A stretch of DNA of 32,000 nucleotides from Kineococcus radiotolerans SRS30216 = ATCC BAA-149 (GTDB lineage: Bacteria > Actinomycetota > Actinomycetes > Actinomycetales > Kineococcaceae). Positions 7,316-32,000 of this stretch are shown piece by piece. Under the pieces are notes generated by a model. The model did not search any database. It saw only the letters and a list, made by a program, of their open reading frames with translations, and was not told the DNA's origin. Positions within the stretch are counted from its first letter, which is position 1; the number at the start of each line of letters is the position of its first letter. The stretch covers positions 1,320,001 to 1,352,000 of the forward strand of contig NC_009664.2 of NCBI RefSeq assembly GCF_000017305.1, read 5' to 3'. A program made the translations under genes and the position numbers.

Positions 7316-8086
7316 ATGGGCACCGTGGACGACCTCCCGACGCGCTTCGCGGCGGCCCGGGCCCGCCGCGCCGACCCCGCCCGCCCGGAGCTGGCGGCGA
7401 CGGCCCTGGCCGCGGCCTGCTGCGACGTGCTGGCCGTGGACGGGGCCGTGGTCAGCGTCGCGGGCCGGGACGCGTGGCGGTTGCCCGTCGGGGCCAGCGA
7501 CGACGCGGCCGCCGCGGCGGAGCGCTGGCGGTTCACGGTCGGGCAGGGCCCCGGCGGCGGGGACGGGGCCGCGGAGCCCCTGGTCGTGGACGCGGACGGG
7601 TTGCGGACCCGCTGGCCCGCGCTGCACGACCAGCTGCGCCGCCACACCCCCTTCCGCAGCACGGTGACGCTGCCGCTGCGGCTGCTCCTGCCGGGCGGGG
7701 CGACGGGTCCGGGGGTGCTCGACCTGCACCTGCACCGCGAGCGCCCCCTCGCGCCCCCCGGCCCCGGCGCGGCGCCCCTGGACCTGGGCCCGGCCCGCCG
7801 GGTGGCCGCCCTCGTCGGCGCCGGGCTCGACGCCACCGGGGCCGGCGCCACCGGGGCCGGCGCGGGCGAGGGGCACGGGGAGCCGGACTGGATGGACGCC
7901 CCCACCGCCCGGGCCCGCCAGCGGGTGTGGATGGTCATCAGCATGGCCCAGCAGGTGCTGGCCGTGGAGCGCGCCGACGCGCTGGCCCTGCTGCGCGCCA
8001 CCGCCTACGTGCAGGACCGGACCCTGGAGGACCTCGCCGAGGACGTCGTCGCGGGACGCACCCCCCTGGGGTCCCTGCGGGGGTGA
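7316..8086 (+). CDS. GAF-like + ANTAR domain RNA-binding antiterminator-type regulator
   Basis: ATG 7316 (MGTVDDLP) lies within tracked ORF 7010..8086. The N-terminal block DVLAVDGAVVSVAG...ASDDAAAAAERWRFTVGQGPG matches the actinobacterial GAF-ANTAR pattern. The C-terminal block ISMAQQVLAVERADALALLRATAYVQDRTLEDLAEDVVAG is ANTAR-like. Confidence 0.8.
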   Translation: MGTVDDLPTRFAAARARRADPARPELAATALAAACCDVLAVDGAVVSVAGRDAWRLPVGASDDAAAAAERWRFTVGQGPGGGDGAAEPLVVDADGLRTRWPALHDQLRRHTPFRSTVTLPLRLLLPGGATGPGVLDLHLHRERPLAPPGPGAAPLDLGPARRVAALVGAGLDATGAGATGAGAGEGHGEPDWMDAPTARARQRVWMVISMAQQVLAVERADALALLRATAYVQDRTLEDLAEDVVAGRTPLGSLRG

Positions 8087-14644: not shown

Positions 14645-14720
14645 TGGAGCCCCTGGTCGGAATCGAGCCGACGACCTACCGCTTACAAGGCGGTTGCTCT
14701 GGCCACTGAGCTACAGGGGC
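14645..14720 (-). tRNA. tRNA-Thr (anticodon UGU), CCA encoded
   Basis: The reverse complement reads GCCCCTG TA GCTC AGTGGCCA GAGC A ACCGC CTTGTAA GCGGT AGGTC GTCGG CTCGATT CCGAC CAGGGGC T CCA. This is 76 nt and forms a complete cloverleaf with a 7-bp acceptor stem, and the anticodon loop CT-TGT-AA gives anticodon TGT. Confidence 0.93.
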
Positions 14721-20265: not shown

Positions 20266-21174
20266 GTGAGGTACCGCGACGACGCGAGCCTGGACCCCGG
20301 CGGCGTGCAGGACCGGCGGGGCGGCGGCGGGCGGACGGTCGCGCTGGGCGGCGGTGGCCTGGGCATCGTGGGCGTGCTCGTGCTCGTCCTGTTCCAGGTC
20401 CTCGGCAGCGGGGGTCCCGACGGGTCCGGCACGCGCTCCGCGGGGGTCTTCGACCAGCTGGGCCAGGGGCAGAGCGTGGGCGGTGCGGAACTGGCCTCCT
20501 CCTGCCGCACCGGCGCCGACGCCAACGCGCGGACGGAGTGCGCGCTGGTCGCCGACATCGAGTCCGTGCAGGACTACTGGACCGCGGTGCTCGGGAACGG
20601 GTACACCGCCACCGACACCGTGTTCTTCTCCGGCGGGACGCAGACCGGCTGCGGGGCGGCGTCCTCGGGGACCGGGCCCTTCTACTGCCCCGCCGACCAG
20701 CTCGTGTACGTGGACCTCTCCTTCTTCGACGAGCTGCGCACGCGGTTCGGCGCCGAGGGCGGGTCCTTCGTCAACGCCTACGTCCTCGCCCACGAGTACG
20801 GCCACCACGTGCAGCACCTGCTGGGCACCACCGACGCGGTGCCGGCGGGCGCGGCCGGTCCCGACAGCGCCAGCGTGCGGCTGGAGCTGCAGGCCGACTG
20901 CTACGCGGGGACGTGGGCGAACCACGCCACCACCGTCCCGGACGACTCCGGCGCCCCGCTGATCGCCGAGATCACCGCCGACGACGTGGAACGCGCCCTC
21001 GACACGGCCGGGCGCATCGGTGACGACTTCATCCAGACCGAGCTCGGGAACGGCAGCGCCGACCCGGACTCCTACACCCACGGCACCTCGGAGCAGCGCC
21101 GGCACTGGTTCAGCACCGGGTACGAGACCGGCGACCCCCGGCAGTGCGACACCTTCAGCGCCACCACCCTCTGA
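20266..21174 (+). CDS. Putative neutral zinc metallopeptidase (YpfJ family), N-terminal membrane anchor
   Basis: GTG 20266 lies within tracked ORF 20077..21174. VRYRDDASLDPGGVQDRRGGGG followed by a TM helix (LGIVGVLVLVLFQVL) matches YpfJ-type N-termini. It also has GPFYCPADQLVYVDLSFF, the HExxH site (LAHEYGHHVQ) and LELQADCYAG. Confidence 0.85.
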   Translation: MRYRDDASLDPGGVQDRRGGGGRTVALGGGGLGIVGVLVLVLFQVLGSGGPDGSGTRSAGVFDQLGQGQSVGGAELASSCRTGADANARTECALVADIESVQDYWTAVLGNGYTATDTVFFSGGTQTGCGAASSGTGPFYCPADQLVYVDLSFFDELRTRFGAEGGSFVNAYVLAHEYGHHVQHLLGTTDAVPAGAAGPDSASVRLELQADCYAGTWANHATTVPDDSGAPLIAEITADDVERALDTAGRIGDDFIQTELGNGSADPDSYTHGTSEQRRHWFSTGYETGDPRQCDTFSATTL

Positions 21175-21183
21175 GCGGACCCC

Positions 21184-21681
21184 TCAGGGACGGGGCAGTT
21201 CCTTCTCGAAGGGCAGCGGGCCGATGGTCTCGGGGTCGGCGGTGACGTCGAACAGCGGCCGGTAGCCCGCGGTGAGGTAGAGGTGCCTCGCCTCGGGCTG
21301 GCGCGGCCCGGTCGTCAGGTGCAGGCGGGAGTAGCCGGCGGCGACGGCGCGGCGCTCGAGCTCCCGCAGCACCCGCCGTCCCAGGCCGCGCCGCCGGTGC
21401 CCGGGGTGGGTCCAGATCCGCTTGAGCTCCGCGGTGCGCTCGTCGTAGCGGCGGTAGGCGCCGCCGGCGACGGGCGCACCGTCCTCCAGCAGCAGGAGCA
21501 GCACGCCGTGCGGTTCCTCGAACTCCGCCGGCGGGTAGCGCTCGAGTTCTCGCCGCACCTGCTCGGGCGTCCCGCCGTAGCGGGCCCCGTACTCCCGGGC
21601 CAGGTCCTCGAACAGCGGGCGGGCCAGCTCGTCGCGGGTCCCCACCGCGCGGACGGCGAGCTCGACGGGTTCCGCGGTCAC
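21184..21681 (-). CDS. GNAT-family N-acetyltransferase, last gene of the ABC operon
   Basis: This is the 3' part of tracked ORF 21184..23082. GTG 21681 overlaps the ATPase stop (GTGA). The GNAT core is AELKRIWTHPGHRRRGLGRRVLRELERRAVAAGYSRLHLTTGPRQPEARHLYLTAGYRPL. Confidence 0.8.
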   Translation of the reverse strand: MTAEPVELAVRAVGTRDELARPLFEDLAREYGARYGGTPEQVRRELERYPPAEFEEPHGVLLLLLEDGAPVAGGAYRRYDERTAELKRIWTHPGHRRRGLGRRVLRELERRAVAAGYSRLHLTTGPRQPEARHLYLTAGYRPLFDVTADPETIGPLPFEKELPRP

Positions 21682-23333
21682 GACACGTCCTCCAGCGCCC
21701 GCCGGCCGGGGATGGCCTCCAGCAGTTCGACGGTGTACTCGTGCCGGGGGCGGGAGAACACCTCGTCGGTGGGTCCGAGCTCGACGAGTTCCCCCCGGCG
21801 CACGACACCCACCCGGTCGCTGACCTGGCGGACCACGGCCAGGTCGTGGGAGATGAACAGGTAGCTCAGGCCGTGGTCGGCCTGCAGCTGCACCAGCAGT
21901 TCCAGGATCTGCGCCTGGACCGAGACGTCGAGGGCGGAGACGGGTTCGTCGCACACCACGAGCTCCGGTTCCAGGGCCAGCGCGCGGGCGATCGCGACCC
22001 GCTGCCGCTGCCCGCCGGACAGTTCCGCGGGCCGGCGTTCGAGAAGGCCGGCCGGCAGCCGGACCTGGTCCAGCAGGGACGCCGCGCGCCGCCGACGCGA
22101 CGCCCGGTCCCCGATCCCGAAGGCGCGCAGGGGTTCCGCGACCGTCTCCCCCACCGCGACGCGCGGGTCCAGCGAGGCGTAGGGGTTCTGGTAGACCAGC
22201 TGCACCCGCCGGCGCAGTTCGCGCCAGGCCGCCCCCCTCAGACCGGCCGTCGGTTCCCCGTCGAACCGCACCTCCCCCGAGGTCGGCCGCTCCAGCCCCA
22301 GGACGAGGCGGGCGGTGGTGGTCTTGCCCGACCCGGACTCCCCCACGAGGGCGAGGGTCTCGCCGCGGGCGACGTCGAAGCTCACCCCGGCGACGGCGGT
22401 CTGGGTGCGGCCGCGCCCGGGCAGCGGGAACTCCTTCACCAGGTCGCGCACCTGGACCAGCGGTCCGGACGCGCGGGGCGCCGGGGGTTCCGGGGGTTCC
22501 GGGGGTGCGGTGCGGGGGCGCGGGCGGGCGGTGATCCGGGCGCTGGAGAGGCTGGGCGCGCTGGCCAGCAGGGACGCCGTGTACGGGTGTCGGGGCCGGG
22601 TGAGGACCTGGTGCGCGGTGCCGACCTCGACGACCTCGCCCCCGGACATCACCACGACCCGCGACGCCCGGTCCGCGGCGACGGCGAGGTCGTGGGTGAT
22701 GAGCAGCACGGCCGTCCCGGCGTCGCGGGTCAGCGCCTCCAGGTGGTCGAGGACCTGCCGCTGGACGGTGACGTCGAGGGCGCTGGTCGGTTCGTCGGCG
22801 ACGAGCAGCCGGGGGCCGGCGGCGAGGCCGATGGCGATGAGGACGCGCTGGCGCATGCCGCCGGAGAGTTCCGTCGGGTACTGCCGCGCGCGCAGGGCGG
22901 CGTCGGGCAGGCCGGCGGCGGTGAGCAGGTCGACGGCCCGCGCCCGGGCGGCCGCTCCCCGGGCCAGGCCGTGGACGTGCAGCGCCTCGGCGACCTGGTC
23001 GCCGATGCGCTCGACCGGGTTCAGCGACAGCGTGGGGTCCTGCGGGACGAGCCCGATGCGGGCCCCGCGGACCCGGCGCCACGCACCCTCCCCCAGCCCG
23101 ACCAGTTCGTCGCCCTCCAGCAGGACGGAGCCGGAGTCGACGGAACCGTTGCCGGGCAGCAGACCCACGACGGCGTGCGCCGTGGTGCTCTTGCCGGAGC
23201 CGGACTCGCCGACGACCGCGACGACCTCGCCCGGGTGCACGTCGAAGGACGCGCCGTGGACGACCTCGCGCCGCCCGTCCCGCCCGGCGTAGGAGATCCG
23301 CAGGTCCTCGACCTGCAGCAGGGGGGTGCTCAC
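21678..23333 (-). CDS. Fused double ABC ATPase (DppD/DppF-like halves in one chain, GsiA-like architecture)
   Basis: 551 aa from GTG 23333, which overlaps the permease stop as GTGA. There are two Walker A sites (GESGSGKST, GESGSGKTT) and two signature motifs (LSGGMRQRV, LSGGQRQRVAIARAL). Confidence 0.9.
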   Translation of the reverse strand: MSTPLLQVEDLRISYAGRDGRREVVHGASFDVHPGEVVAVVGESGSGKSTTAHAVVGLLPGNGSVDSGSVLLEGDELVGLGEGAWRRVRGARIGLVPQDPTLSLNPVERIGDQVAEALHVHGLARGAAARARAVDLLTAAGLPDAALRARQYPTELSGGMRQRVLIAIGLAAGPRLLVADEPTSALDVTVQRQVLDHLEALTRDAGTAVLLITHDLAVAADRASRVVVMSGGEVVEVGTAHQVLTRPRHPYTASLLASAPSLSSARITARPRPRTAPPEPPEPPAPRASGPLVQVRDLVKEFPLPGRGRTQTAVAGVSFDVARGETLALVGESGSGKTTTARLVLGLERPTSGEVRFDGEPTAGLRGAAWRELRRRVQLVYQNPYASLDPRVAVGETVAEPLRAFGIGDRASRRRRAASLLDQVRLPAGLLERRPAELSGGQRQRVAIARALALEPELVVCDEPVSALDVSVQAQILELLVQLQADHGLSYLFISHDLAVVRQVSDRVGVVRRGELVELGPTDEVFSRPRHEYTVELLEAIPGRRALEDVS

Positions 23334-24232
23334 GCGTCGGTCCCCCTCTCCAGCGCCCGGGCGATCCGGTTGGCCGACAGCACGACCGCCGCGACCACCA
23401 GCCCGGGCAGCGTCGTCAGCCACCACGACGTCGCGAGGTAGTCGCGCCCGCCCGAGACGAGCGAACCCCACTCCGGCGCCGGTGGCGGCGCGCCGAAGCC
23501 GAGGAAGCTGAGGGCGGAGACGGCGAGGACGGCCATCCCGAACTCCAGCGCCGACAGCGCGAGGACGGGGCCGGCCGCGTTGGGCAGGACGTGGCGCAGC
23601 AGGACGCCGGTGGTCCGGACCCCGCTGGCCCGCGCGGCCTCCACGTAGACGGCCCCGCTCACCCGGAGGACCTCCGCGCGCATGACGCGGGCGAAGTTCG
23701 CGACCGTCCCCAGGCCCACCGCGACGGCGACCTCGACCGTGCCGAAACCCAGGGCGGTGATGAGGGCCATGGACAGCAGCAGCGAGGGGACGGAGAGCAG
23801 CACGTCCACGAAGCGCATCAGCACGTCGTCGACGACCCCGCGCGCGGAACCCGCGACGAGACCGACCAGCGTCCCCGCGACGAACCCGACGAGCACGGCG
23901 AGGACGGTCGCCTCCAGGGTCAGCCGCGCGCCGTGGACGACGCGGGCGAACAGGTCGCGGCCGAGGTGGTCGGTGCCGAACGGGTGCGCGGCCGACGGGC
24001 CCTGCAGCCGGTCGTCGGGGATCCCCCGGACCGGGCTCTGCGCGGTGAACAGGGTCGGGGCCACCGCCCAGGCGAGCACGAGCAGGATCACCAGCGCGGC
24101 GACGACGACGCCGGGGCGGCGCCACCGGGCCGGGATCCCGCGGCGGGGTGCGGGGGCGCGGCGGTACCGCTCCCCGATGTCGAGGACGTCGAGGACGGCC
24201 TCGGGCGCTTCCCGGTTCACTCCGACGGTCAT
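23330..24232 (-). CDS. ABC peptide/nickel-type permease (DppC/OppC-like)
   Basis: 300 aa from ATG 24232, with a 1-nt overlap (TGATG) on the upstream permease stop. It has the typical N-terminal PFGTDHLGRDLFARVVHGAR and the EAA loop YVEAARASGVRTTGVLLRHVLPN. Confidence 0.9.
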   Translation of the reverse strand: MTVGVNREAPEAVLDVLDIGERYRRAPAPRRGIPARWRRPGVVVAALVILLVLAWAVAPTLFTAQSPVRGIPDDRLQGPSAAHPFGTDHLGRDLFARVVHGARLTLEATVLAVLVGFVAGTLVGLVAGSARGVVDDVLMRFVDVLLSVPSLLLSMALITALGFGTVEVAVAVGLGTVANFARVMRAEVLRVSGAVYVEAARASGVRTTGVLLRHVLPNAAGPVLALSALEFGMAVLAVSALSFLGFGAPPPAPEWGSLVSGGRDYLATSWWLTTLPGLVVAAVVLSANRIARALERGTDA

Positions 24233-25248
24233 CAGGCGGTCCCCACGACGGTGCGGTCGGCGGTGCGGTCGCGGCGCGCGGAGGCGCGGGCGCCCCCGAC
24301 GACCCGCAGGCGCGGGTCGAGCACCGGGTAGAGCAGGTCGACGACGAGGTTGGTGACGACGAAGACCGCGGCGGCCAGCAGCACGAGGCCCTGGACCAGC
24401 GGGATGTCCTGCCCGTTGACGGCGGTGACGGTCAGGCGGCCGATCCCCACCCGGGAGAAGACCGTCTCGACGACGACGGCCCCCGCGAGGAGGTTCCCGA
24501 CGACGATCCCCCCGACGGTGAGGGTGGGGATGGTGGCGTTGCGCAGGGCGTGGCGCAGGTGGACCCGCGCCCGGGAGGCCCCCTTGGCCCGGGCGGTGTC
24601 GACGTAGGGCTCGGCCAGGGCCGTCCGCAGGCTGCGGGCCAGGACCTGCGCGATCGAGGCCGACACCGGGACCGCCAGGGTGACGGCGGGCAGGACGAGG
24701 GCGGCGAGGCCCTCCCCGCCCAGGGCCGGGAAGACCGGGACCCGGAAGGAGAGGAGCTGGACGAGCAGCAGACCGACCCAGAACGTCGGCAGCGAGACCC
24801 CCAGCGGCGGCAGGGCCAGCAGCGCCGTCCGCAACCAGCCCCGGCGGGTCCAGGTGCCGAGGAACGCGGTCGCGACGCCCGCGACCAGCGCCAGCGCGCC
24901 GGCGGCGGCGGCGAGCAGCGCCGTCTGCGGCAGCGCGTCCGCGATGAGGGCGGAGACGGGCGCCCCGTTCTGGATGGAGTTCCCGAAGTCCAGGTGCAGG
25001 GTGCGCCACAGGGCGTGCAGGTACTGGACGGGCAGCGGGTCGTCGAGGCCGTGCTCGGCGCGCAGCGCCGCCACCTGCGCGGGGTCGACCGCCGTCTGCT
25101 CACCGCCGCGGCCGCCGGCCAGCATGATCGAGACGGGGTCGCTGGGCAGCAGGTAGAGGATGGCGAACGTCACCGTGAACGCGGCCCAGAGGACCACGAC
25201 GGCCTGGCCGAGGCGGCGGGCCACGTACCCCGCGAGCCCGGGGTTCAC
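24232..25248 (-). CDS. ABC peptide/nickel-type permease (DppB/OppB-like)
   Basis: GTG 25248 overlaps the SBP stop (GTGA), so the tracked start at 25275 is probably too long. YVARRLGQAVVVLWAAFTVTFAILYLLPSDP and YVDTARAKGASRARVHLRHALRNA are family-typical. Confidence 0.85.
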   Translation of the reverse strand: MNPGLAGYVARRLGQAVVVLWAAFTVTFAILYLLPSDPVSIMLAGGRGGEQTAVDPAQVAALRAEHGLDDPLPVQYLHALWRTLHLDFGNSIQNGAPVSALIADALPQTALLAAAAGALALVAGVATAFLGTWTRRGWLRTALLALPPLGVSLPTFWVGLLLVQLLSFRVPVFPALGGEGLAALVLPAVTLAVPVSASIAQVLARSLRTALAEPYVDTARAKGASRARVHLRHALRNATIPTLTVGGIVVGNLLAGAVVVETVFSRVGIGRLTVTAVNGQDIPLVQGLVLLAAAVFVVTNLVVDLLYPVLDPRLRVVGGARASARRDRTADRTVVGTA

Positions 25249-26843
25249 GCCGTCTTCCAGGCGTCGTGGAACCACAACCGGGAGGAACCCTCGAACCTCA
25301 GGTCGTGGACGTCCTCGCCGGCGGCGATGACGGTGGAGAGCTCGATCAGCGGGACGGAGTGGGCCTGGCTCAGCAGCAGCTGCGAGGCCCGCGCCACGAG
25401 GTCGGCGCGCTGGGCGGGGTCGGTGGTGGCGGCCTGCCGGTCGAGGAGGTCGTCGACCTCGCTGCGCGCGCGGTGGTTCACGTTGCGCCCGTCGGCGCTG
25501 AAGACGGTGCGCAGCACGTCCGGGTCGGAGCGGGTGAGGTTGTAGAACAGCGCGTCGTAGTCGCCGGAGGCCTGCTGCGCGGCCGTGTCGGCCGTGGTCC
25601 CCTGCTTCAGCTGCAGGTCGATGCCGACCTCGCGCACCTGCTGCTGCACCAGTTCGAGCACCGCGGACGTGGGCTGCCAGAACGTGACGGTGAACGTGAG
25701 GTCCTGACCGCCCTTCGTGCGGATCCCGTCCGGGCCCTTCGTCCAGCCCGCCTCGTCGAGCAGCGCGTTGGCGCCGGCGACGTCGTGGGCCAGGAGGTCG
25801 GAGTCGTCGGGGGCGTCGGGGGTCGAGGCGGACAGGGCGGAGCTGACGGCGACGTCACCGGGGTTGAGGATGGCGGCGAGCTGCTCGCGGTCGACGGCCT
25901 TGGACAGCGCCCGCCGGACGCGTTCGTCGGCGAAGAGGGGCCGGGACTCGTTGAGGAAGAAGTTGTACGGGATGCCGGGGTTGGCGCGGCGCTCGGTCCA
26001 GAAGCCGTTGCCGTCGAACTGCGGGAGGTCCTGGGCGGCGATGCCGGTGGTGGCGTCGACCTGGTGGGACTGCAGCGCCCCGGTGCGGACGCCGGCCTCG
26101 GGCACGACCCGGTAGGTGATGGTGTCGAGGTAGGCCTCCCCGGTGTGCTTCGCCCCCGTCGGCGCCCAGCCGTACCCGGCGCGCTTGGCCAGGACGGCCT
26201 CGTCGTCGCGGGTGTAGCTCCGCACGGTGAACGGCCCGGAGCCGACGAGAGTGCTCCCGTCGCAACGGGTCGCGGGATCGGCGGTGGTGGTGGGGACGGA
26301 CAGCAGCCCCAGGCTCATCGTCGAGGTGGCCTGGAGGAACTGGGCGCTGGGCCCGGCGAACGACACCACCGCGGTCCGCGCGTCCGGCGTGGCCGTGCCG
26401 GTGTACCCGGCGAGGTAGGTCGACCCCAGGGACGCCTTCGCCCCCAGCGCCACGATCCCGTCGAGGTTGGCCTTCACCGCGGCGGAGTCCACGGGGGTCC
26501 CGTCGGAGAACGTCGCGCCCTCGCGCAGGTGGAACGTGAACGTCGTGGCGTCGGGGCTCACCTCCCACGACTGCGCGAGCCACGGCTGGATCGCCCCGTC
26601 GAGGTCCTGGACGGTGAGGGAGTCGACGAGCTGGCGGCCGATGTTGAGGGCGTCGTTGTTGCCGACCTGCTGCGGGTCGATGCACCCGGAGTCGACCTGG
26701 ATCGCGACGGTGAGGTTCCCGCCGGCGACGGGCTCGGCGTCGGCGGCGGGGTTCGCGCCGCCGTCCCCGCTCCCGCCGCCGCAGGCGGTGAGGGCGAGGA
26801 GCGCGACGAGGGCGGTGACGGTCGAGGGCGTGCGGGTGCGCAA
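25245..26843 (-). CDS. ABC substrate-binding lipoprotein, family 5 (peptide/nickel/glutathione-type)
   Basis: 532 aa. TTG start preceded by GGAGAA at 5-nt spacing. It has a lipoprotein signal with lipobox LALTAC-GGGSG. The length and blocks (NLTVAIQVDSGCIDPQQ, WEVSPDATTFTFHLREGATFSDGTPV) fit SBP_bac_5. Confidence 0.9.
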   Translation of the reverse strand: MRTRTPSTVTALVALLALTACGGGSGDGGANPAADAEPVAGGNLTVAIQVDSGCIDPQQVGNNDALNIGRQLVDSLTVQDLDGAIQPWLAQSWEVSPDATTFTFHLREGATFSDGTPVDSAAVKANLDGIVALGAKASLGSTYLAGYTGTATPDARTAVVSFAGPSAQFLQATSTMSLGLLSVPTTTADPATRCDGSTLVGSGPFTVRSYTRDDEAVLAKRAGYGWAPTGAKHTGEAYLDTITYRVVPEAGVRTGALQSHQVDATTGIAAQDLPQFDGNGFWTERRANPGIPYNFFLNESRPLFADERVRRALSKAVDREQLAAILNPGDVAVSSALSASTPDAPDDSDLLAHDVAGANALLDEAGWTKGPDGIRTKGGQDLTFTVTFWQPTSAVLELVQQQVREVGIDLQLKQGTTADTAAQQASGDYDALFYNLTRSDPDVLRTVFSADGRNVNHRARSEVDDLLDRQAATTDPAQRADLVARASQLLLSQAHSVPLIELSTVIAAGEDVHDLRFEGSSRLWFHDAWKTA

Positions 26844-26873
26844 GGGTTCTCCAGGCTGGGGGGACGTCGAGGA

Positions 26874-26921
26874 CGCGTCCGGCCGGGGGCGGGACGCGGG
26901 GTGACCGGGGTTTCCCGGTCA
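26874..26921 (-). other. Two GC stem-loops between the leader mini-ORF and the SBP start
   Basis: In minus-strand RNA: UGACCGGG-AAAC-CCCGGUCA (26902..26921, 8-bp stem) and CGCGUCC-(11 nt)-GGACGCG (26874..26898). No U-tract. They could be an attenuator or a processing/stability element. Confidence 0.35.
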
Positions 26922-26936
26922 GCGGGGTGGTGGTGG

Positions 26937-27014
26937 TCAGCGACAGCCGGTGGAACCGGAGAGGCAGAAGTCGACGACGCGCCGCAGGACGGCGACGTGG
27001 GACGTCGTGTTCAC
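26937..27014 (-). CDS. Riboswitch-gated leader mini-ORF (25 aa): MNTTSHVAVLRRVVDFCLSGSTGCR
   Basis: GTG 27014 lies 5 nt after GGAGGA, which is itself the 3' strand of riboswitch P1. 23 of 25 codons end in G/C. TGA stop at 26937..26939. It is too short to appear in the ORF track. Translation is unproven. Confidence 0.35.
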   Translation of the reverse strand: MNTTSHVAVLRRVVDFCLSGSTGCR

Positions 27015-27021
27015 AGCGTTC

Positions 27022-27112
27022 CTCCATCGTTCCTGGCGGAAGCACCCGCGCCCGTTGCCGGGGGGTTGCTGCGACGTCGTGGAGCCAGGTCTCTCAGCCG
27101 CTCTGGATGGTG
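27022..27112 (-). promoter_or_regulatory. SAM riboswitch, SAM-I-type core (copy A), apparently lacking P4
   Basis: Minus-strand RNA: CACCAUC CAGAG CGGCUGAGAGACCUGGCUCCACGACGUCG CAGCAACC CCCCGGCAACGGGCGCGGGUGCUUCCGCCAGGAAC GAUGGAG. This shows the S-box hallmarks: P1 CACCAUC/GAUGGAG, AGAG junction, GAGxGA..CUGGC P2 region, GCAACC, GGUGCU, and a GCCAGG/CCUGGC pseudoknot. Confidence 0.8.
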
Positions 27113-27125
27113 TTCTCCGTCGAGA

Positions 27126-28097
27126 CTAGGGCGCGGCCGGGGGAAACTCAACCCGGTCGCCGTCGGCGGACCGCGCGGCCCGCCGCGCCGCGGCGGCCCA
27201 CCCGCCCGGGTCGTCCGGGCCCGGGACGGCCTGCAACCCCAGCCAGAGCAGCAGGGCCTCGAACCACCGCGCCTCGGCGGGGGCGAGCGGGCGGACGGAC
27301 TCGTAACCGCGGCGGAACGTCCGCTGCGCCGGCGCCGGCGTCGGCCGCCACCCGGTGAAGCGGGTACCCAGGTGCACGGAGGCCTTGGCCAGGTCGACCA
27401 CCCGGTGCCCGGGGGCGACCTCGTCGGGGTCGAGCACCGCGACGACGGACGAACCCCGGGTCAGGACGTTCGCGGCCCGGAAGTCCAGGTGCACCAGCTG
27501 AGGTTCGTCCTCGAGGACCGGGGCCGCGTCGAGGAGGTCCGCGAGGCGGCGCGAGGCCGCGGGCACGTGCCCGGGGTCCCGCCCCGCCAGCCACTCCCGG
27601 ACGGCCTCCGCCAGTGGCGGGCCCACCGGCCCCACCGCGGGACGGGCCGTCGCCAGGTCCCGGTGCAGCCGCGCCAGGCAGGCTCCCGCCGCGTGGACCG
27701 CGACGGGGTCCGCGACGTCGAGCCAGTCCCCCTCGACCTCCGGCAGCACCACGACCGACAGCGGCCCCGCCGGCCCCGCGAGCACCGCCCGGTCCCGGCC
27801 CGCGGTCGCGACGACCGGCGCGGCCACCGGGGCACCGAGCCCCGCGAGGTCGCGCAGCAGCCGCGCGGCGGCGTCCAGGCGCGCGAACCGCTCCGGCGCG
27901 CACGACCACTTCACGACGAGCCCGCCCACCCACGCGATCGCGTTCCGGTCGCTGATCACCAGCCGGGTGCAGGGGCCGGGGGTCAGGCCCCACGTCCCCT
28001 CCAGCGCCGTCGCGAGCCACGCCGCGGCGGCGTCGAACCCGGTGAACCCGAAGCGCCCGGCGAGGGCCCCGGAGGGGTCCGCGGATTCCCAGAGCAT
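27126..28097 (-). CDS. Phosphotransferase of the APH/choline-kinase fold (unknown substrate)
   Basis: This is the 3' part of tracked ORF 27126..30626. Start ATG 28097 (MLWESADP); the alternative GTG 28118 is buried in a hairpin arm. The catalytic-loop Brenner motif HxDxxxxN is present as LVHLDFRAANVL, followed by AVLDPDE (the metal-binding Asp position). Confidence 0.75.
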   Translation of the reverse strand: MLWESADPSGALAGRFGFTGFDAAAAWLATALEGTWGLTPGPCTRLVISDRNAIAWVGGLVVKWSCAPERFARLDAAARLLRDLAGLGAPVAAPVVATAGRDRAVLAGPAGPLSVVVLPEVEGDWLDVADPVAVHAAGACLARLHRDLATARPAVGPVGPPLAEAVREWLAGRDPGHVPAASRRLADLLDAAPVLEDEPQLVHLDFRAANVLTRGSSVVAVLDPDEVAPGHRVVDLAKASVHLGTRFTGWRPTPAPAQRTFRRGYESVRPLAPAEARWFEALLLWLGLQAVPGPDDPGGWAAAARRAARSADGDRVEFPPAAP

Positions 28098-28107
28098 GGA
28101 CAGGCCC

Positions 28108-28148
28108 GGCGGCAGCACCCCCGGACCGTGGCCGGGGGTGCCGCCGCC
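28108..28148 (-). terminator. 17-bp stem-loop between metE and the kinase gene
   Basis: Arms 28108..28124 (ggcggcagcacccccgg) and 28132..28148 (ccgggggtgccgccgcc), with a 7-nt loop. The single non-Watson-Crick position is G-U in the minus-strand RNA but A-C in the plus-strand RNA, so the structure is optimised for the metE transcript. Confidence 0.5.
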
Positions 28149-28168: not shown

Positions 28169-30502
28169 TCAGCTCGCGGCGGCGGGGACGGGGAGTTCCG
28201 CGCGCACCGTGCGGGCGGCCTCGACGAGGTTCCGCAGCGACTCCGTGGTCTCGGCGTAGCCGCGGGTCTTCAGGCCGCAGTCGGGGTTCACCCAGACCTG
28301 GCGGGCCGGGACGGAGGCGACGGCCGCGCGCAGCAGCCCGGCGATCTCCTCGGTGGAGGGCACCCGCGGGGAGTGGATGTCGTAGACGCCGGGCCCGATG
28401 CCGCGGGCGAACCCGGCGCGGGCGATGTCGTCGAGGACCTCCATGCGCGAGCGCGCCGCCTCGATGCTCGTGACGTCGGCGTCGAGGCCGTCGATCGCGT
28501 CGATGACCTCGCCGAACTCCGAGTAGCACAGGTGGGTGTGGATCTGCGTCGCGTCGCCGGCGCCGGCGGTGGCGAGGCGGAAGGAGCCCACCGACCAGTC
28601 CAGGTAGGCGGGCTGGTCCCCGGTGCGCAGCGGCAGCAGTTCCCGCAGGGCGGGTTCGTCGACCTGGACGACGCCGATGCCGGCGGCCTCGAGGTCGGCG
28701 ACCTCGTCGCGCAGCGCCAGCGCCACCTGCCGGGCGGTGTCGCCGAGGGGCTGGTCGTCGCGCACGAAGGACCAGGCCAGGATCGTCACCGGGCCGGTGA
28801 GCATCCCCTTGACCGGCTTCGGCGTCCGGCTCGCGGTGTACGTGCTCCACGGGACGGTGATCGGCGCCGGGCGCACCACGTCGCCCCACAGGATCGGCGG
28901 GCGCACGCAGCGGGAACCGTAGGACTGCACCCAGCCGTGCGCGGTGACGGCGAACCCGTCGAGCTGCTCGGCGAAGTACTGCACCATGTCGTTGCGCTCG
29001 GGTTCGCCGTGCACGACGACGTCGAGGCCGAGTTCCTCCTGCAGGGCCACCACGCGGTCGATCTCGGCACGGAGGAACTCCTCGTAGGCCCCCTGGTCGA
29101 GGTCCCCGCGGGTCCAGGCGGCGCGGGCCCGGCGGATCTCCGCGGTCTGGGGGAACGAGCCGATGGTCGTCGTCGGCAGCGCGGGCAGCCCGAGGGCCTC
29201 CTCCTGCGCCAGGCGGCGCACGGCGTAGTCGCTGCGGTGGAACGCCTCCGGGGTCAGGGCGGCGAGGCGCTCGCGGACCTCCGGGCGCACGACCCCGGGG
29301 GCCCCGGTGCGGTCGGCGCGGGCCCGCGCGGAGGCGGACAGCTCCTCCCGGACCGCGGCGGCGTCGCCGAGGGCGCGGCCGAGCACGACGACCTCGGAGA
29401 CCTTCTGGTCGGCGAAGGCGAGCCAGCCGCGCAGCCGCTCGTCGAGCGCCGTCTCGCGGGTCACGTCGTGCGGCACGTGCAGCAGCGAGGTGGAGGTCCC
29501 CGCGACGACCCGCGCGGCGGGACCCTCCAGGGTCCGCAACCGGGCGAGGGCCGCGACGAGGTCGGCGCGCCAGACGTTGTGCCCGTCGACGACCCCGCCG
29601 ACGACGGTCTTGCCGGTCAGCAGCTCCGGGCGGGCGGGGACGTCGCCGCGGACGAGGTCCAGGGCCAGGCCCTCCACGGCGGTCGCGGCGAGCGGTTCCA
29701 GCAGTTCGCCCGGGTCGCCGTAGGGGGTGGCGACGAGCAGGCGCGGACGCCCCTCGACGGCGGCGAGGCGGTCGTAGGCGGCGCGCACCAGGCCGGCGAG
29801 GCCCTCGACGCCGGCCGTGGCGGAGTCGCTGACCAGCGCCGGCTCGTCCAGCTGCACCCACTCCGCCCCCGCGGCGGCGTAGGCGGTGAGCAGGTCCTCG
29901 TAGGCGCCGAGCAGGTCGTCGAGGCGGGAGATCGGGGCGAAGCCCTCGGGGCTGCCCCCGGCCGCCTTGGCCAGCAGCAGGAACGTCACCGGGCCCACCA
30001 CGACCGGGCGGGTCAGGAACCCGTCGGCGAGGGCCTCGGAGAACTCCCGGACCCCGCGGTCGTCGGCGAAGCGGAACGCGGTGCCGGGGCCGATCTCGGG
30101 GACGAGGTAGTGGTAGTTCGTGTCGAACCACTTCGTCATCTCCAGCGGGGCGTCGGCCCCCCGCCCGCGGGCGATGGTGGAGTACCCGGCGAGGTCGACC
30201 CGCCCGTCCTCCCCCACGACGTCGGCGAACCGCGGCGGGACCGCGCCGACCGCGACGGCGGCGTCGAGCACCTGGTCGTAGGCCGAGAACGCCGAGGGGA
30301 TCGAGGCGTCGTGGGCGGGCAGGCCGAGGGAGTTGAGCCGGCGCACCGTGGCCGCCCGCACCCCGGCGAGGGCCCGCTCGGTGCTCGCGAGGTCGGCGCG
30401 CCCGGCCCACAGCGCCTCGAGGGCCTTCTTGGCCTCGCGGTCGGCGCCGGTGCGGGGGTAGCCGAGGACGGTGGCGGTCCAGGCGGGGAGCTGTTCGGTC
30501 AT
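28169..30502 (-). CDS. metE: Cobalamin-independent methionine synthase (5-methyltetrahydropteroyltriglutamate-homocysteine S-methyltransferase)
   Basis: 777 aa from ATG 30502, which overlaps the metF stop as [40 protein letters not shown] and [10 protein letters not shown] are canonical MetE motifs. Confidence 0.95.
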
Positions 30503-31452
30503 CGTGCGGGTCCTCCTGCCGCGGCAGCCGTGCTGGCGCGGATCGGGTCGAGGGAGCGGGGCAGGTCGAGGTCGTCGAGCAGGTCGAGGGCCGGTTCGGC
30601 CGCGTTGAACGTGTAGAGGTGGACACCGGGGGCGCCGGCGTCGAGCAGCCCGCGGGCCAGTCCCGCCGTGAACGCCGTCGCGGCGCGCCGGCGCCGGGGC
30701 GCGTCGTCGGTGTCGAGCGCCGCCAGCAGCGGGACGGGGACGGGGACGCCGGTGAGTTCGCCGATCCGCCCCAGCCGACGGGTGCAGTCGGTCACCGCGA
30801 CACCGGGCAGCAGCGGGATCCGCACCCCCGCCGCGCGGGCCCGGCGGACGAAGGCGGCGTACTCCCCGGCGGAGAACGTCACCTGGCAGACCGCGAAGTC
30901 CGCGCCGGCGTCCTGCTTGGCGCGCAGCGCGGCCAGTTCGCCCTCGCCCCCGCGGGGGAAGGCGGCGACGGCGAGGCTCAGCGGGCCCTCGTCGACCGGG
31001 ACCCGCGCGCCCCGCAGGGCCGCCCGGCGCCGGTCGGCGACCTGGAGGAGTTCCACCAGGTCGCGGGCCGTGGCCACCCCGTCGGGGTGCGGGGTCCACC
31101 CCGCGTCCCCGGCCGGCGGGTCCCCGCGCAGGGCGAGGACGTTGCGGACCCCGGCGTCGAGGAACTCGCTGGCCAGGTCCACGACCTCGCGGCGGGAGGA
31201 CCCCACGCAGGTCAGGTGGGCCATGGCGGGCACGGCCGTCGTGCGGAGCACGTGGGCCAGCAGGTCCCGGCTGGGTCCGCGGGTGGCCCCGGCCGCGCCG
31301 AACGTGACCGACACGAAGTCCGGGCGGGCGGCGAGGAGGTCGGACAGCTTGCGCCACAAACCTTCCCGGGCGCTCTCGGAACGCGGGGGGAACAGTTCGA
31401 AGCTGAGGACGGGTCTCCCCGCCGCTCCGGCGACGAGGGGAGCCAGGGTCAC
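30499..31452 (-). CDS. metF: Methylenetetrahydrofolate reductase
   Basis: 317 aa, GTG start. [10 protein letters not shown] near the N-terminus, [17 protein letters not shown] and [10 protein letters not shown] are typical MetF blocks. There is no SD in front of the GTG, and the start overlaps the stop of a mini-ORF (GTGA). Confidence 0.92.
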
Positions 31453-31508
31453 CGCGGGCTGCCCGGGACCGGGACCGGGTAGGCGTCGACGACATCGGTG
31501 CTGCGCAT
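31449..31508 (-). CDS. Riboswitch-gated leader mini-ORF (19 aa [19 protein letters not shown]; 23 aa if started at AUG 31520) coupled to metF
   Basis: AUG 31508 lies 6 nt after the GGAG that is the P1 3' strand of riboswitch copy B. The ORF ends in UGA 31449..31451, forming GUGA with the metF start codon. Translation is unproven. Confidence 0.35.
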
Positions 31509-31514
31509 CACGAA

Positions 31515-31604
31515 CTCCATCGGCCTGGCTTTAGCACCCTCGCCCGGGCTCGGGGGGTTGCTGCGGCGTCGTCGAGCCAGGACTCTCGGCCGCTCTGGAT
31601 GGTG
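31515..31604 (-). promoter_or_regulatory. SAM riboswitch, SAM-I-type core (copy B), apparently lacking P4, upstream of metF-metE
   Basis: Minus-strand RNA: CACCAUC CAGAG CGGCCGAGAGUCCUGGCUCGACGACGCCG CAGCAACC CCCCGAGCCCGGGCGAGGGUGCUAAAGCCAGGCC GAUGGAG. It is nearly identical to copy A and lies upstream of classic SAM-regulon genes. Confidence 0.85.
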
Positions 31605-31756
31605 TGGTTCGAATGTAGACCGGCACCGCGGCGCTCCACAAGGGTTCCCCGGGAACACCGCCGGCGGTTCCCCCGGTCGGCCCCACCGGGGGTCCGGGAC
31701 GGCCCGCGACGCGCCGACCTTGCCGCCGGGCGGTGGTTCGTGGCAACCTCGCCGCA

Positions 31757-31870
31757 GGTCATGAGCGCCAGCGACAAGCCCCGGCTCGCTGGCCGGCAAC
31801 CCTCCTCCGCGGCGGGGTGCCCCGGGTGACGACCTGGCCGGTGCCGACGTGGCGCCGGCAAGCGCGGACC
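31757..31870 (+). promoter_or_regulatory. SAM-IV riboswitch
   Basis: GGUCAUGAGCGCCAGCGACAAGCCCCGGCUCGCUGGCCGGCAACCCUCCUCCGCGGCGGGGUGCCCCGGGUGACGACCUGGCCGGUGCCGACGUGGCGCCGGCAAGCGCGGACC matches, block for block, the actinobacterial SAM-IV sequence as I remember it (GGUCAUGAG..GCCAGCG..AAGCCCCGGCU.GCUGGCCGGCAACCCUCC..GGGGUGCCCCGGGUGA.GACC..GGCAAGCGCGG). That includes the 3' hairpin and the pseudoknot tail. Confidence 0.85.
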
Positions 31871-31925: not shown

Positions 31926-32000
31926 GTGACGACCACCACCCTGTCCCCCTCCCGCCCCTGTCCCGGGGCGGTCCACGGGCCCCTGCTGCCCGTCGTCGGC
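31926..32000 (+). CDS. Start of an unidentified SAM-IV-controlled gene (only 25 codons in window)
   Basis: GTG 31926 lies 7 nt after GAGGAG. The frame stays open to the window edge (VTTTTLSPSRPCPGAVHGPLLPVVG) with G/C-ending codons. A GUCCUC segment at about 31888..31893 could pair with the SD. Confidence 0.4.
   Translation, partial: MTTTTLSPSRPCPGAVHGPLLPVVG

Follow-up and report, generated by a model that had tools for sequence, protein, structure and literature searches.

A SAM-I riboswitch heads a peptide/nickel-family ABC importer operon in Kineococcus radiotolerans: comparative evidence for a candidate SAM-controlled organosulfur uptake module

The window analysed here is a stretch of 32,000 nucleotides from the genome of Kineococcus radiotolerans SRS30216 (contig NC_009664.2, positions 1,320,001 to 1,352,000), with a G+C content of 76.7%. 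On its minus strand it carries a five-gene operon for an ATP-binding cassette (ABC) importer and a GNAT N-acetyltransferase, and a riboswitch of the S-adenosylmethionine (SAM)-sensing class SAM-I lies at the head of this operon. The first gene encodes a family-5 substrate-binding protein (SBP), a lipoprotein of the SBP_bac_5 family (25245..26843; PF00496, 241.8 bits) that has a TTG start and the lipobox LTAC; its closest relatives are Kineococcus proteins of 80-88% identity and an ENA metagenome protein of 99%. It is followed by a DppB/NikB-like permease (24232..25248; BPD_transp_1, PF00528, and BPD_transp_1_N), a DppC/NikC-like permease (23330..24232; PF00528), a fused double ATPase with two ABC_tran (PF00005) and two oligo_HPY (PF08352) domains (21678..23333), and, as the last gene, the GNAT (21184..21681; Acetyltransf_1, PF00583, 65.5 bits). 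The gene identities were checked with Pfam and NCBIfam profiles, which both agree with the operon composition proposed in an earlier reading of the sequence, hereafter the original prediction. The overlap of all four gene junctions, also part of that prediction, is seen directly in the sequence: GTGA between the SBP and the first permease, TGATG (a 1-nt overlap) between the permeases, and GTGA at the two remaining junctions.

The predicted SAM-I aptamer was recovered by Rfam (RF00162) at 27021..27113 on the minus strand at 53.2 bits, where 44.4 is the gathering score, with E=1e-9 over the entire window. It is a P4-less variant: helices P1-P3 and the core motifs AGAG, GAGRGA, GCAACC and GGUGC are present and P4 is reduced to 1 nt, against 17 model positions, and a second SAM-I aptamer of the window, on the side of the metF and metE genes, is built alike. 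In nine Kineococcus loci the operon-side aptamer is nearly invariant while the flanking leader diverges. Directly 5' of the aptamer lie a -35 box TTGAGT (27146..27151, minus strand) and a -10 box TAGTCT (27123..27128, minus strand), the latter taking in the TAG at which the preceding APH-family gene stops. Alignment of the window with eight other genomes gives the Kineococcus promoter as GGTTGAG(T/G/C), kept in all nine leaders, a spacer of 17-18 nt, and TANNNT, which ends 8-11 nt before P1; the -10 sequences TAGTCT, TATGGT, TAGAGT, TACAGT and TATGCT align in 9/9 loci. A generic sigma-70 promoter and terminator scan reported no promoter, which becomes visible only when relatives are aligned, and predicted no intrinsic terminator in the leader. 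Because these boxes are conserved directly 5' of the aptamer, the operon has a promoter of its own, and the aptamer is situated in the 5' leader of the transporter operon, downstream of this promoter, as the SAM-I class requires.

From the end of the aptamer to the SBP start there are 178 nt, and in between lies a conserved leader open reading frame (ORF) of 25 codons, called uORF2 (26937..27014, minus strand; GTG start, TGA stop), which encodes the peptide MNTTSHVAVLRRVVDFCLSGSTGCR. Its Shine-Dalgarno (SD) sequence GGAGG (27021..27025, minus strand) can be read inside the 3' strand of P1 (GAUGGAGG), and the GTG follows 5-7 nt on in all nine Kineococcus leaders. The SD inside P1 serves this leader ORF and not the SBP, and the leader ORF is what the riboswitch would control most directly. 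Length, GTG start and TGA stop are identical in 9/9 Kineococcus leaders and in a more distant metagenome relative (L082; peptide VDVTTHVPILRLFVDLCRTHSTRCR); another metagenome relative (L081) has a 22-codon leader ORF, MEKTHHAVLRLHIDLCRTRSDI, behind a SAM-I of 54.3 bits, and a leader ORF is kept in 11/11 Kineococcus-type leaders. uORF2 is free of indels while the remaining leader is rich in them, its mean dN is 0.145 against a dS of 0.47 (dN/dS ~0.3), and of its variable sites 11, 4 and 14 fall on codon positions 1, 2 and 3, the scarcity at position 2 having P=0.016. The consensus of the peptide is ..HV.(V/I)LR..(V/I)D(L/F)C(R/L)(S/T).S...CR, with scattered Cys codons at positions 17 and 24 and, in some leaders, also at 20. 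Because the short ORF on the metF side, uORF1, is conserved only in position and in its (A/G)TGA overlap with the metF start, this pattern suggests that in the transporter-side leader ORF the sequence itself matters.

The leader ORF and the SBP gene are separated by a C-rich, poorly conserved spacer of 93 nt (26844..26936, minus strand; 54% C, 24% G), in which the SBP ribosome-binding site (RBS), GGAG, is found at 26849..26852; across the Kineococcus leaders the spacer measures 82-118 nt, contains 45-58% C and is rich in indels. Codons ~20-24 of the leader ORF (CUCCA..GGCUG) could pair with the SBP RBS region (CAGCC.UGGAG). Such pairing occurs in the minimum free energy folds of 5/9 leaders, and 9/11 leaders allow it in the same register; a gapless alignment proved unfit for counting pairs.

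The evidence that carries the interpretation comes from relatives. Eighty loci with SBP orthologues (49-86% identity) were fetched, and counts are given out of 81; riboswitches were surveyed with Rfam on representatives and with two covariance models built from the hits. Every locus that extends far enough beyond the SBP for its following genes to be seen has the order SBP, permease, permease, fused ATPase. A SAM riboswitch is present in cis in 44 of the 81 loci and belongs to either of two aptamer classes. SAM-I lies directly upstream of the SBP in nine loci, which are all the Kineococcus loci with upstream sequence, the window included. SAM-IV lies directly upstream of the SBP in 16 loci from Oerskovia, Krasilnikoviella, Isoptericola, Cellulomonas and Cellulosimicrobium, and in another 19 loci, from Arthrobacter, Paenarthrobacter and Pseudarthrobacter, SAM-IV is followed by two genes for luciferase-like monooxygenases (LLMs) and then by the SBP. 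Because two unrelated aptamer architectures head the same orthologous operon, these comparisons provide strong evidence that SAM control of the transporter has been selected for. The original prediction had proposed SAM control of a peptide/nickel-family importer and had named as a check the joint occurrence of aptamer, SBP_bac_5 and GNAT in other Actinomycetota; the aptamer-transporter link is indeed conserved across genera, with both SAM-I and SAM-IV, but the GNAT is part of the operon in Kineococcus only. The simplest reading of the Kineococcus case is that the transporter recruited a copy of the metF/metE aptamer, since the two SAM-I aptamers of the window are ~90% identical.

The remaining 37 loci, among them all those of Microbacterium, have no SAM riboswitch; in three of them the SBP is joined 44-64 nt behind an LLM gene. 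Another riboswitch class was sought in the orthologues of Microbacterium, Gryllotalpicola, Miniimonas and Streptomyces, and none was found. The Microbacterium orthologues share a different conserved leader of ~160 nt ahead of the SBP gene (at L030, for example, 7837..7997), with 3-4 direct repeats (A/G)TGACG ~11 nt apart, the palindrome CGTGAAC..GTTCACG and a GC hairpin before the RBS. This type of leader was seen at loci L025, L030, L031, L033, L035-L037, L040, L043, L044, L047, L048, L054, L055, L059 and L065; it has no Rfam match and could be a transcription-factor operator array or an undescribed RNA element.

The gene neighbourhood of the transporter is conserved as well. Neighbouring genes were called by a windowed GC3 method and then clustered, and in 70/81 loci no more than 8 kb separates the SBP from at least one gene for a flavin mononucleotide (FMN)-dependent LLM. 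SAM-IV, the two LLM genes and the SBP form a single operon in the Arthrobacter group. The main LLM cluster, c4, belongs to the NtaA/DmoA family (TIGR03860, 433 bits, above the cut-off), has Bacillus subtilis YtnJ/MoxC as its best PDB match (304 bits) and lies near the transporter in 47/81 loci, while a shorter LLM partner, c5, does so in 37. The neighbouring LLMs score against the MsnO8, SsuD, CE1758, KPN_01858 and NtaA/DmoA models, and the cut-off is passed only for MsnO8 (by cluster c7) and NtaA/DmoA (by c4). Other recurrent neighbours encode a rhodanese, an ArgE/DapE-type M20 deacylase (present in 19 loci), a flavin reductase, a nitroreductase, a DUF1684 protein, a class-V aminotransferase, a cystine-like polar-amino-acid ABC system and several GNATs. 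At two loci (L006 13813..14416 and L007 13671..14274, both on the minus strand) a gene with a Flavokinase domain only is located directly behind a SAM-IV, beside the transporter-GNAT operon. We take this gene to resemble B. subtilis ribR, which lies inside the ytmI sulfur operon; the pairing of SAM-IV with a flavokinase would tie the FMN supply for the LLMs to the SAM level.

In the Kineococcus loci L001-L005, the genes behind a divergent SAM-IV encode a class-V aminotransferase, a rhodanese and LLMs. The window likewise contains a divergent SAM-IV aptamer (RF00634, 109.3 bits; 31757..31870, plus strand), which heads a class-V aminotransferase gene with its GTG start at 31926. This gene leaves the window, and its N-terminus matches cluster c17 of L001-L005. 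Since the window SAM-IV precedes the N-terminus of the same aminotransferase, the LLM genes of K. radiotolerans are probably to be found shortly beyond the end of the window. Two further RNA elements were observed near orthologous transporters: in Kineococcus sp. SYSU DK003 a third SAM-I (L001 1241..1336, minus strand; 81 bits with our own model) is located directly upstream of LLM c5, giving four SAM riboswitches within 8 kb, and in a Streptomyces locus a Streptomyces-metH RNA (RF03076, 87.6 bits; L078 2587..2710, minus strand) lies ~5 kb from the transporter.

The importer has the components of the PepT family (Opp/Dpp/Nik, TC 3.A.1.5), namely a family-5 SBP, two BPD_transp_1 permeases and an oligo_HPY ATPase. 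The best NCBIfam match of the SBP is TIGR04028 (SBP_KPN_01854) with 303 bits, below the cut-off of 468.5, and a Paenarthrobacter orthologue scores 316.8 bits against the same cut-off; next come NikA (178.8 bits), CntA and then GsiB (89.5 bits), with 64 bits for OppA and 56 for DppA. Among solved structures the closest, at up to 117 bits, are those of NikA, of AgaA, which binds agropinic acid, and of CntA-type proteins. Both permeases score best against the Opp2B/NikB/NikC nickel permease models, while the cut-offs for NikD and NikE are passed by the generic ATPase halves only, which also exceed that of a dipeptide ATPase subfamily (PRK11308, 468.9 vs 408). The likeness to the glutathione importer GsiABCD of Escherichia coli, drawn in the original prediction, holds for the architecture and fails as orthology: none of the four Gsi equivalog scores comes near its cut-off (GsiA 493.6 vs 1077, GsiB 89.5 vs 594, GsiC 191.6 vs 463, GsiD 185.4 vs 484), and the SBP scores higher with TIGR04028 and NikA than with GsiB. 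An identity with NikABCDE was also rejected (NikA 178.8 vs 393, NikB 236.6 vs 447, NikC 208 vs 358). By these profile scores the transporter belongs to the nickel/opine branch of the PepT-family importers and is no orthologue of Gsi.

The GNAT shows, besides its Acetyltransf_1 domain, the acetyl-CoA motif R/Q-x-x-G-x-G/A of the superfamily, read as RRGLGR, and occupies the same GTGA-coupled position in all Kineococcus loci, including one (L009) where both flanks differ. Homologues of 52-56% identity open an adjacent amino-acid-ABC/LLM operon in three Cellulomonas/Cellulosimicrobium loci, and homologues of 64-73% identity are common in Streptomyces and Kitasatospora. The idea that it acetylates methionine analogues in the manner of MddA/YncA did not hold up: no YncA/PA4866-type structure is found among its 17 PDB matches at E<=0.01, the best being B. 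subtilis YsnE with 34.6 bits, so that no sequence relation to MddA/YncA is detectable in the PDB. In Streptomyces sp. P9-A4 (L083 856..11445), the gene of a GNAT homologue (70%) is accompanied by those of two LLMs, a DUF1684 protein, a NAD_binding_9 protein and a polar-amino-acid ABC system; no riboswitch was found in this cluster, which seems to be the salvage module in a form regulated by proteins.

Taken as a whole, the locus is probably a SAM-repressed operon with its own promoter, encoding a PepT importer and a GNAT and set in a SAM-riboswitch-controlled island of methionine synthesis and organosulfur salvage. Transcription would start a few nucleotides before the aptamer. Binding of SAM would stabilise P1, and because the SD of the leader ORF lies in the stabilised 3' strand, the leader ORF would remain untranslated. 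The ribosome-free leader would then switch the operon off, by Rho-type polarity on the C-rich 93-nt spacer, by the pairing of the leader ORF with the SBP RBS, or by both. At low SAM, the leader ORF would be translated and the five translationally coupled genes expressed. The importer would most likely take up a small amino-acid derivative that contains sulfur, either an S-substituted compound of the cysteine or homocysteine type or else a sulfur-containing pseudo-dipeptide or peptide; the GNAT may N-acetylate this substrate, the neighbouring SAM-IV-controlled LLMs may cleave it, and deacetylation may follow, according to the logic of the B. subtilis yxe pathway. With respect to the role in sulfur-compound uptake that was originally proposed, the neighbourhood fits, with its LLMs, rhodanese, M20 deacylase, flavin reductases, RibR-like flavokinase and GNATs, while the analogies with Gsi and MddA fail; SAM-gated import of a sulfur compound is, as such, well supported by the comparative evidence.

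Several observations weigh against this interpretation. The aptamer has no P4 and exceeds the gathering score by only 9 bits, and 37 of the 81 loci, including all of Microbacterium and three cut at a contig edge, have no SAM riboswitch. The GNAT is joined to the transporter operon in Kineococcus alone, and a homologue from Amycolatopsis (L084) has no sulfur context. The nearest solved relatives of the SBP bind nickel chelates and opines, and no known sulfur compounds. The window itself holds no LLM gene, such genes being placed beyond its end by synteny. Finally, RNAduplex scores the pairing between the leader ORF and the SBP RBS no better than shuffled sequences (mean z +0.46), and L004 and L005 show a local hairpin in its place; because its predicted energy does not exceed that of shuffles, the pairing is offered here as hypothetical.

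These points leave room for other explanations. The locus might encode a generic oligo- or dipeptide importer that provides methionine from Met-containing peptides at low SAM, the GNAT being an unrelated passenger. All parts are indeed members of the Opp/Dpp/Nik superfamily, PRK11308 is matched above its cut-off by the ATPase halves, and the GNAT is not in the operon outside Kineococcus; however, OppA and DppA give the SBP low scores and its best ones come from TIGR04028, NikA and CntA-type proteins, a peptide-nutrition role would not lead one to expect the recurring LLM, rhodanese and flavin-reductase neighbours, with the LLMs in the same SAM-IV operon in 19 loci, and the GNAT keeps its GTGA coupling in all Kineococcus loci even where both flanks are different, which makes this explanation rather unlikely. 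A module whose main task is the detoxification of methionine analogues, by uptake through the importer and acetylation by an MddA-like GNAT, would agree with the translational coupling of the two and with the proposal that acetylation serves the detoxification of S-(2-succino)cysteine (2SC) in B. subtilis (PMC9706529). Yet the PDB matches of the GNAT include no protein of the MddA/YncA/PA4866 type at E<=0.01, importing a toxin at low SAM just to neutralise it would bring no clear benefit, and assimilation is what the LLM and deacylase genes nearby suggest, so that such a function is judged quite improbable.

An importer for nickel, cobalt or a metallophore, of the NikABCDE or Cnt type, seems very improbable. 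In its favour are the best scores of the permeases, with Opp2B/NikB/NikC, the NikA and CntA-type proteins that lead the PDB matches of the SBP, and ATPase halves that exceed the thresholds for NikD and NikE. Against it, neither the SBP nor the permeases come near the Nik cut-offs, no logic is known that would link SAM sensing with nickel uptake, and the conserved neighbours are monooxygenases for organic substrates and not nickel enzymes. It is equally hard to believe that the aptamer is a decaying, non-regulating duplicate of the metF/metE-side SAM-I and that the operon is controlled otherwise. The lack of P4, the score near the threshold and the ~90% identity of the two window aptamers, which suggests a duplication, speak for such decay, but the metF/metE-side copy is P4-less too, the operon-side aptamer is nearly invariant in nine Kineococcus genomes and in a metagenome relative of 74% identity while the flanking leader diverges, and SAM-IV is kept at the same place in other genera.

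A variant of the proposed SAM-repressed importer operon, which we regard as tentative, treats the Cys-containing leader peptide as a second sensor, SAM-I gating the leader peptide and not the transporter directly. The dwell of the ribosome at the Cys codons, or the nascent peptide, may then decide whether the SBP RBS or a Rho site is exposed, and the operon would integrate low SAM with the status of cysteine or of the substrate. Short ORFs that contain Cys were also observed after SAM-IV, MRALGTEQEHDRRVERCLGGTGPLGRCCP in Oerskovia (L010 7658.., L011 7600..) and VAHWQCPDAPCVGCRRMLLVPRACR in Cellulomonas timonensis (L020 7629..). These three are the loci with leaders of >300 nt, and the SD of their short ORF is at or near the 3' end of the aptamer. 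If the two-input variant applied to them, a riboswitch combined with a leader peptide would be a recurrent design in Actinomycetota.

The other features of the window can be described briefly. Rfam places three SAM riboswitches in ~5 kb, a cluster that the original prediction did not mention, any more than it did the operon's promoter or uORF2. The second SAM-I aptamer (RF00162, 63 bits; 31514..31605, minus strand), also with an SD in P1, heads uORF1, metF, metE and the APH-family gene. The stop of uORF1 (31449..31508, minus strand) overlaps the metF start as GTGA; such an (A/G)TGA overlap is found without exception in 5/5 Kineococcus metF loci, while the uORF1 peptide is not conserved. The metF gene (31452..30499, minus strand; MTHFR, 186.8 bits) is joined by an ATGA overlap to metE (30502..28169, minus strand; NF003556, 1008 bits). 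An 1108-aa ORF at 28169..31495 on the minus strand was rejected as a gene, being metE, which starts at 30502, merged with an out-of-frame read of ~340 codons over metF. By its layout, the SAM-I/uORF1/metF arrangement looks like a pure termination-reinitiation relay, as at ppe2 of Mycobacterium tuberculosis. Between metE and the transporter promoter lies the gene of an APH-family phosphotransferase (27126..28118, minus strand; PF01636, 56.5 bits), for which the homoserine-kinase match is weak only and no MtnK match was reported, and which is not found at this position in other Kineococcus loci. At the other end of the operon, the GNAT stop (21184..21186) is 9 nt from that of a convergent YpfJ-type zinc peptidase gene (ending at 21174), and both stops (21172..21190) fall inside an imperfect inverted repeat, CCCTGAG..CTCAGAGGG. 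A consensus terminator scan reported nothing at these convergent stops; the repeat could form a shared bidirectional terminator hairpin for the two genes. A tRNA gene (14648..14720, minus strand; Rfam tRNA, 70.7 bits) is unrelated to the operon.

If the proposed function is correct, the actinomycetote SAM regulon would extend to a peptide/opine-family importer tied to organosulfur salvage by flavin monooxygenases. Because low SAM should induce them, the TIGR04028-like SBP/LLM cassettes would also offer a handle on their substrate. The recruitment of two aptamer classes, SAM-I and SAM-IV, to one orthologous operon is a compact natural example of its kind, and the leader ORF with its SD in P1 would provide, beyond the mycobacteria, a case of a riboswitch-to-uORF (upstream ORF) relay, one that may also respond to another sulfur signal. 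A search of the accessible literature found no paper that links SAM riboswitches to PepT importers or LLM clusters, although an earlier mention in a regulon catalogue is possible. The parts, namely SAM-I, an ABC importer, a GNAT and a uORF relay, are all known; their combination and the exchange of SAM-I and SAM-IV on one orthologous operon appear to be new.

In textbook accounts, SAM riboswitches control the biosynthesis of methionine and cysteine as well as methionine uptake of the MetNIQ type, and reviews give the SAM-I regulon as enzymes of methionine and SAM metabolism plus MetNIQ (PMC11477304). Like MetNIQ/MetNPQ under S-box control, the Kineococcus operon has a SAM-I at the head of an ABC importer that would, as proposed here, feed the methionine/SAM pool. 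It differs in having a PepT transporter in place of the MetQ/NlpA type, a putative switch made of a leader ORF with its SD in P1 in place of a terminator, and an added GNAT. With E. coli GsiABCD it shares a family-5 SBP, two permeases and one fused two-domain ATPase, but the E. coli system, which also serves sulfur nutrition, has neither a riboswitch nor a GNAT. The resemblance to the TIGR04028 cassettes consists in the best family match of the SBP and in the LLMs that flank its orthologues, a partnership on which the definition of the family presumably rests; the SBP nevertheless reaches 303 bits against a cut-off of 468.5, and TIGR04028 is itself a family without a characterised substrate.

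In B. subtilis, the ytmI operon encodes an S-methylcysteine pathway and contains ribR, and the yxe and ytmI operons are under the protein regulators CymR/YtlI. In the yxe system (YxeL/YxeK/YxeP), a GNAT first N-acetylates the S-substituted cysteine that has been imported, an FMN monooxygenase then cleaves it, and deacetylation follows; the same strategy of acetylation, oxygenation and deacetylation is used for other S-alkyl cysteines, e.g. S-methylcysteine (PMC9706529). The neighbourhood of the transporter and its orthologues resembles yxe (scm) and ytmI-ytnM in its GNAT, ABC importer, FMN-dependent LLMs, M20 deacylase, flavin reductase and RibR-like flavokinase. In contrast to them, its importer is of the PepT family, with SBP_bac_5 and a fused ATPase, and not a polar-amino-acid ABC system, its control is by SAM riboswitches, its genes are split over several operons, and its M20 enzyme is ArgE/DapE-like.

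With regard to the leader, B12 riboswitches of M. tuberculosis act via uORFs, one of them, at ppe2, by termination-reinitiation at a NUGA overlap (PMC11260477), and this layout is that of SAM-I, uORF1 and metF in the window. Mycobacterial short ORFs with Cys codons, for their part, release a paired downstream SD only if they are translated (bioRxiv 10.1101/834739). The transporter-side leader resembles the mycobacterial riboswitch-uORF relays in that a riboswitch precedes a short ORF upstream of an operon, but differs from these relays and attenuators in its sensor, SAM-I, and in that uORF2 ends 93 nt before the SBP, with no NUGA overlap. Unlike those of the mycobacterial Cys ORFs, the Cys codons of uORF2 are scattered and not consecutive, and the whole peptide is conserved.

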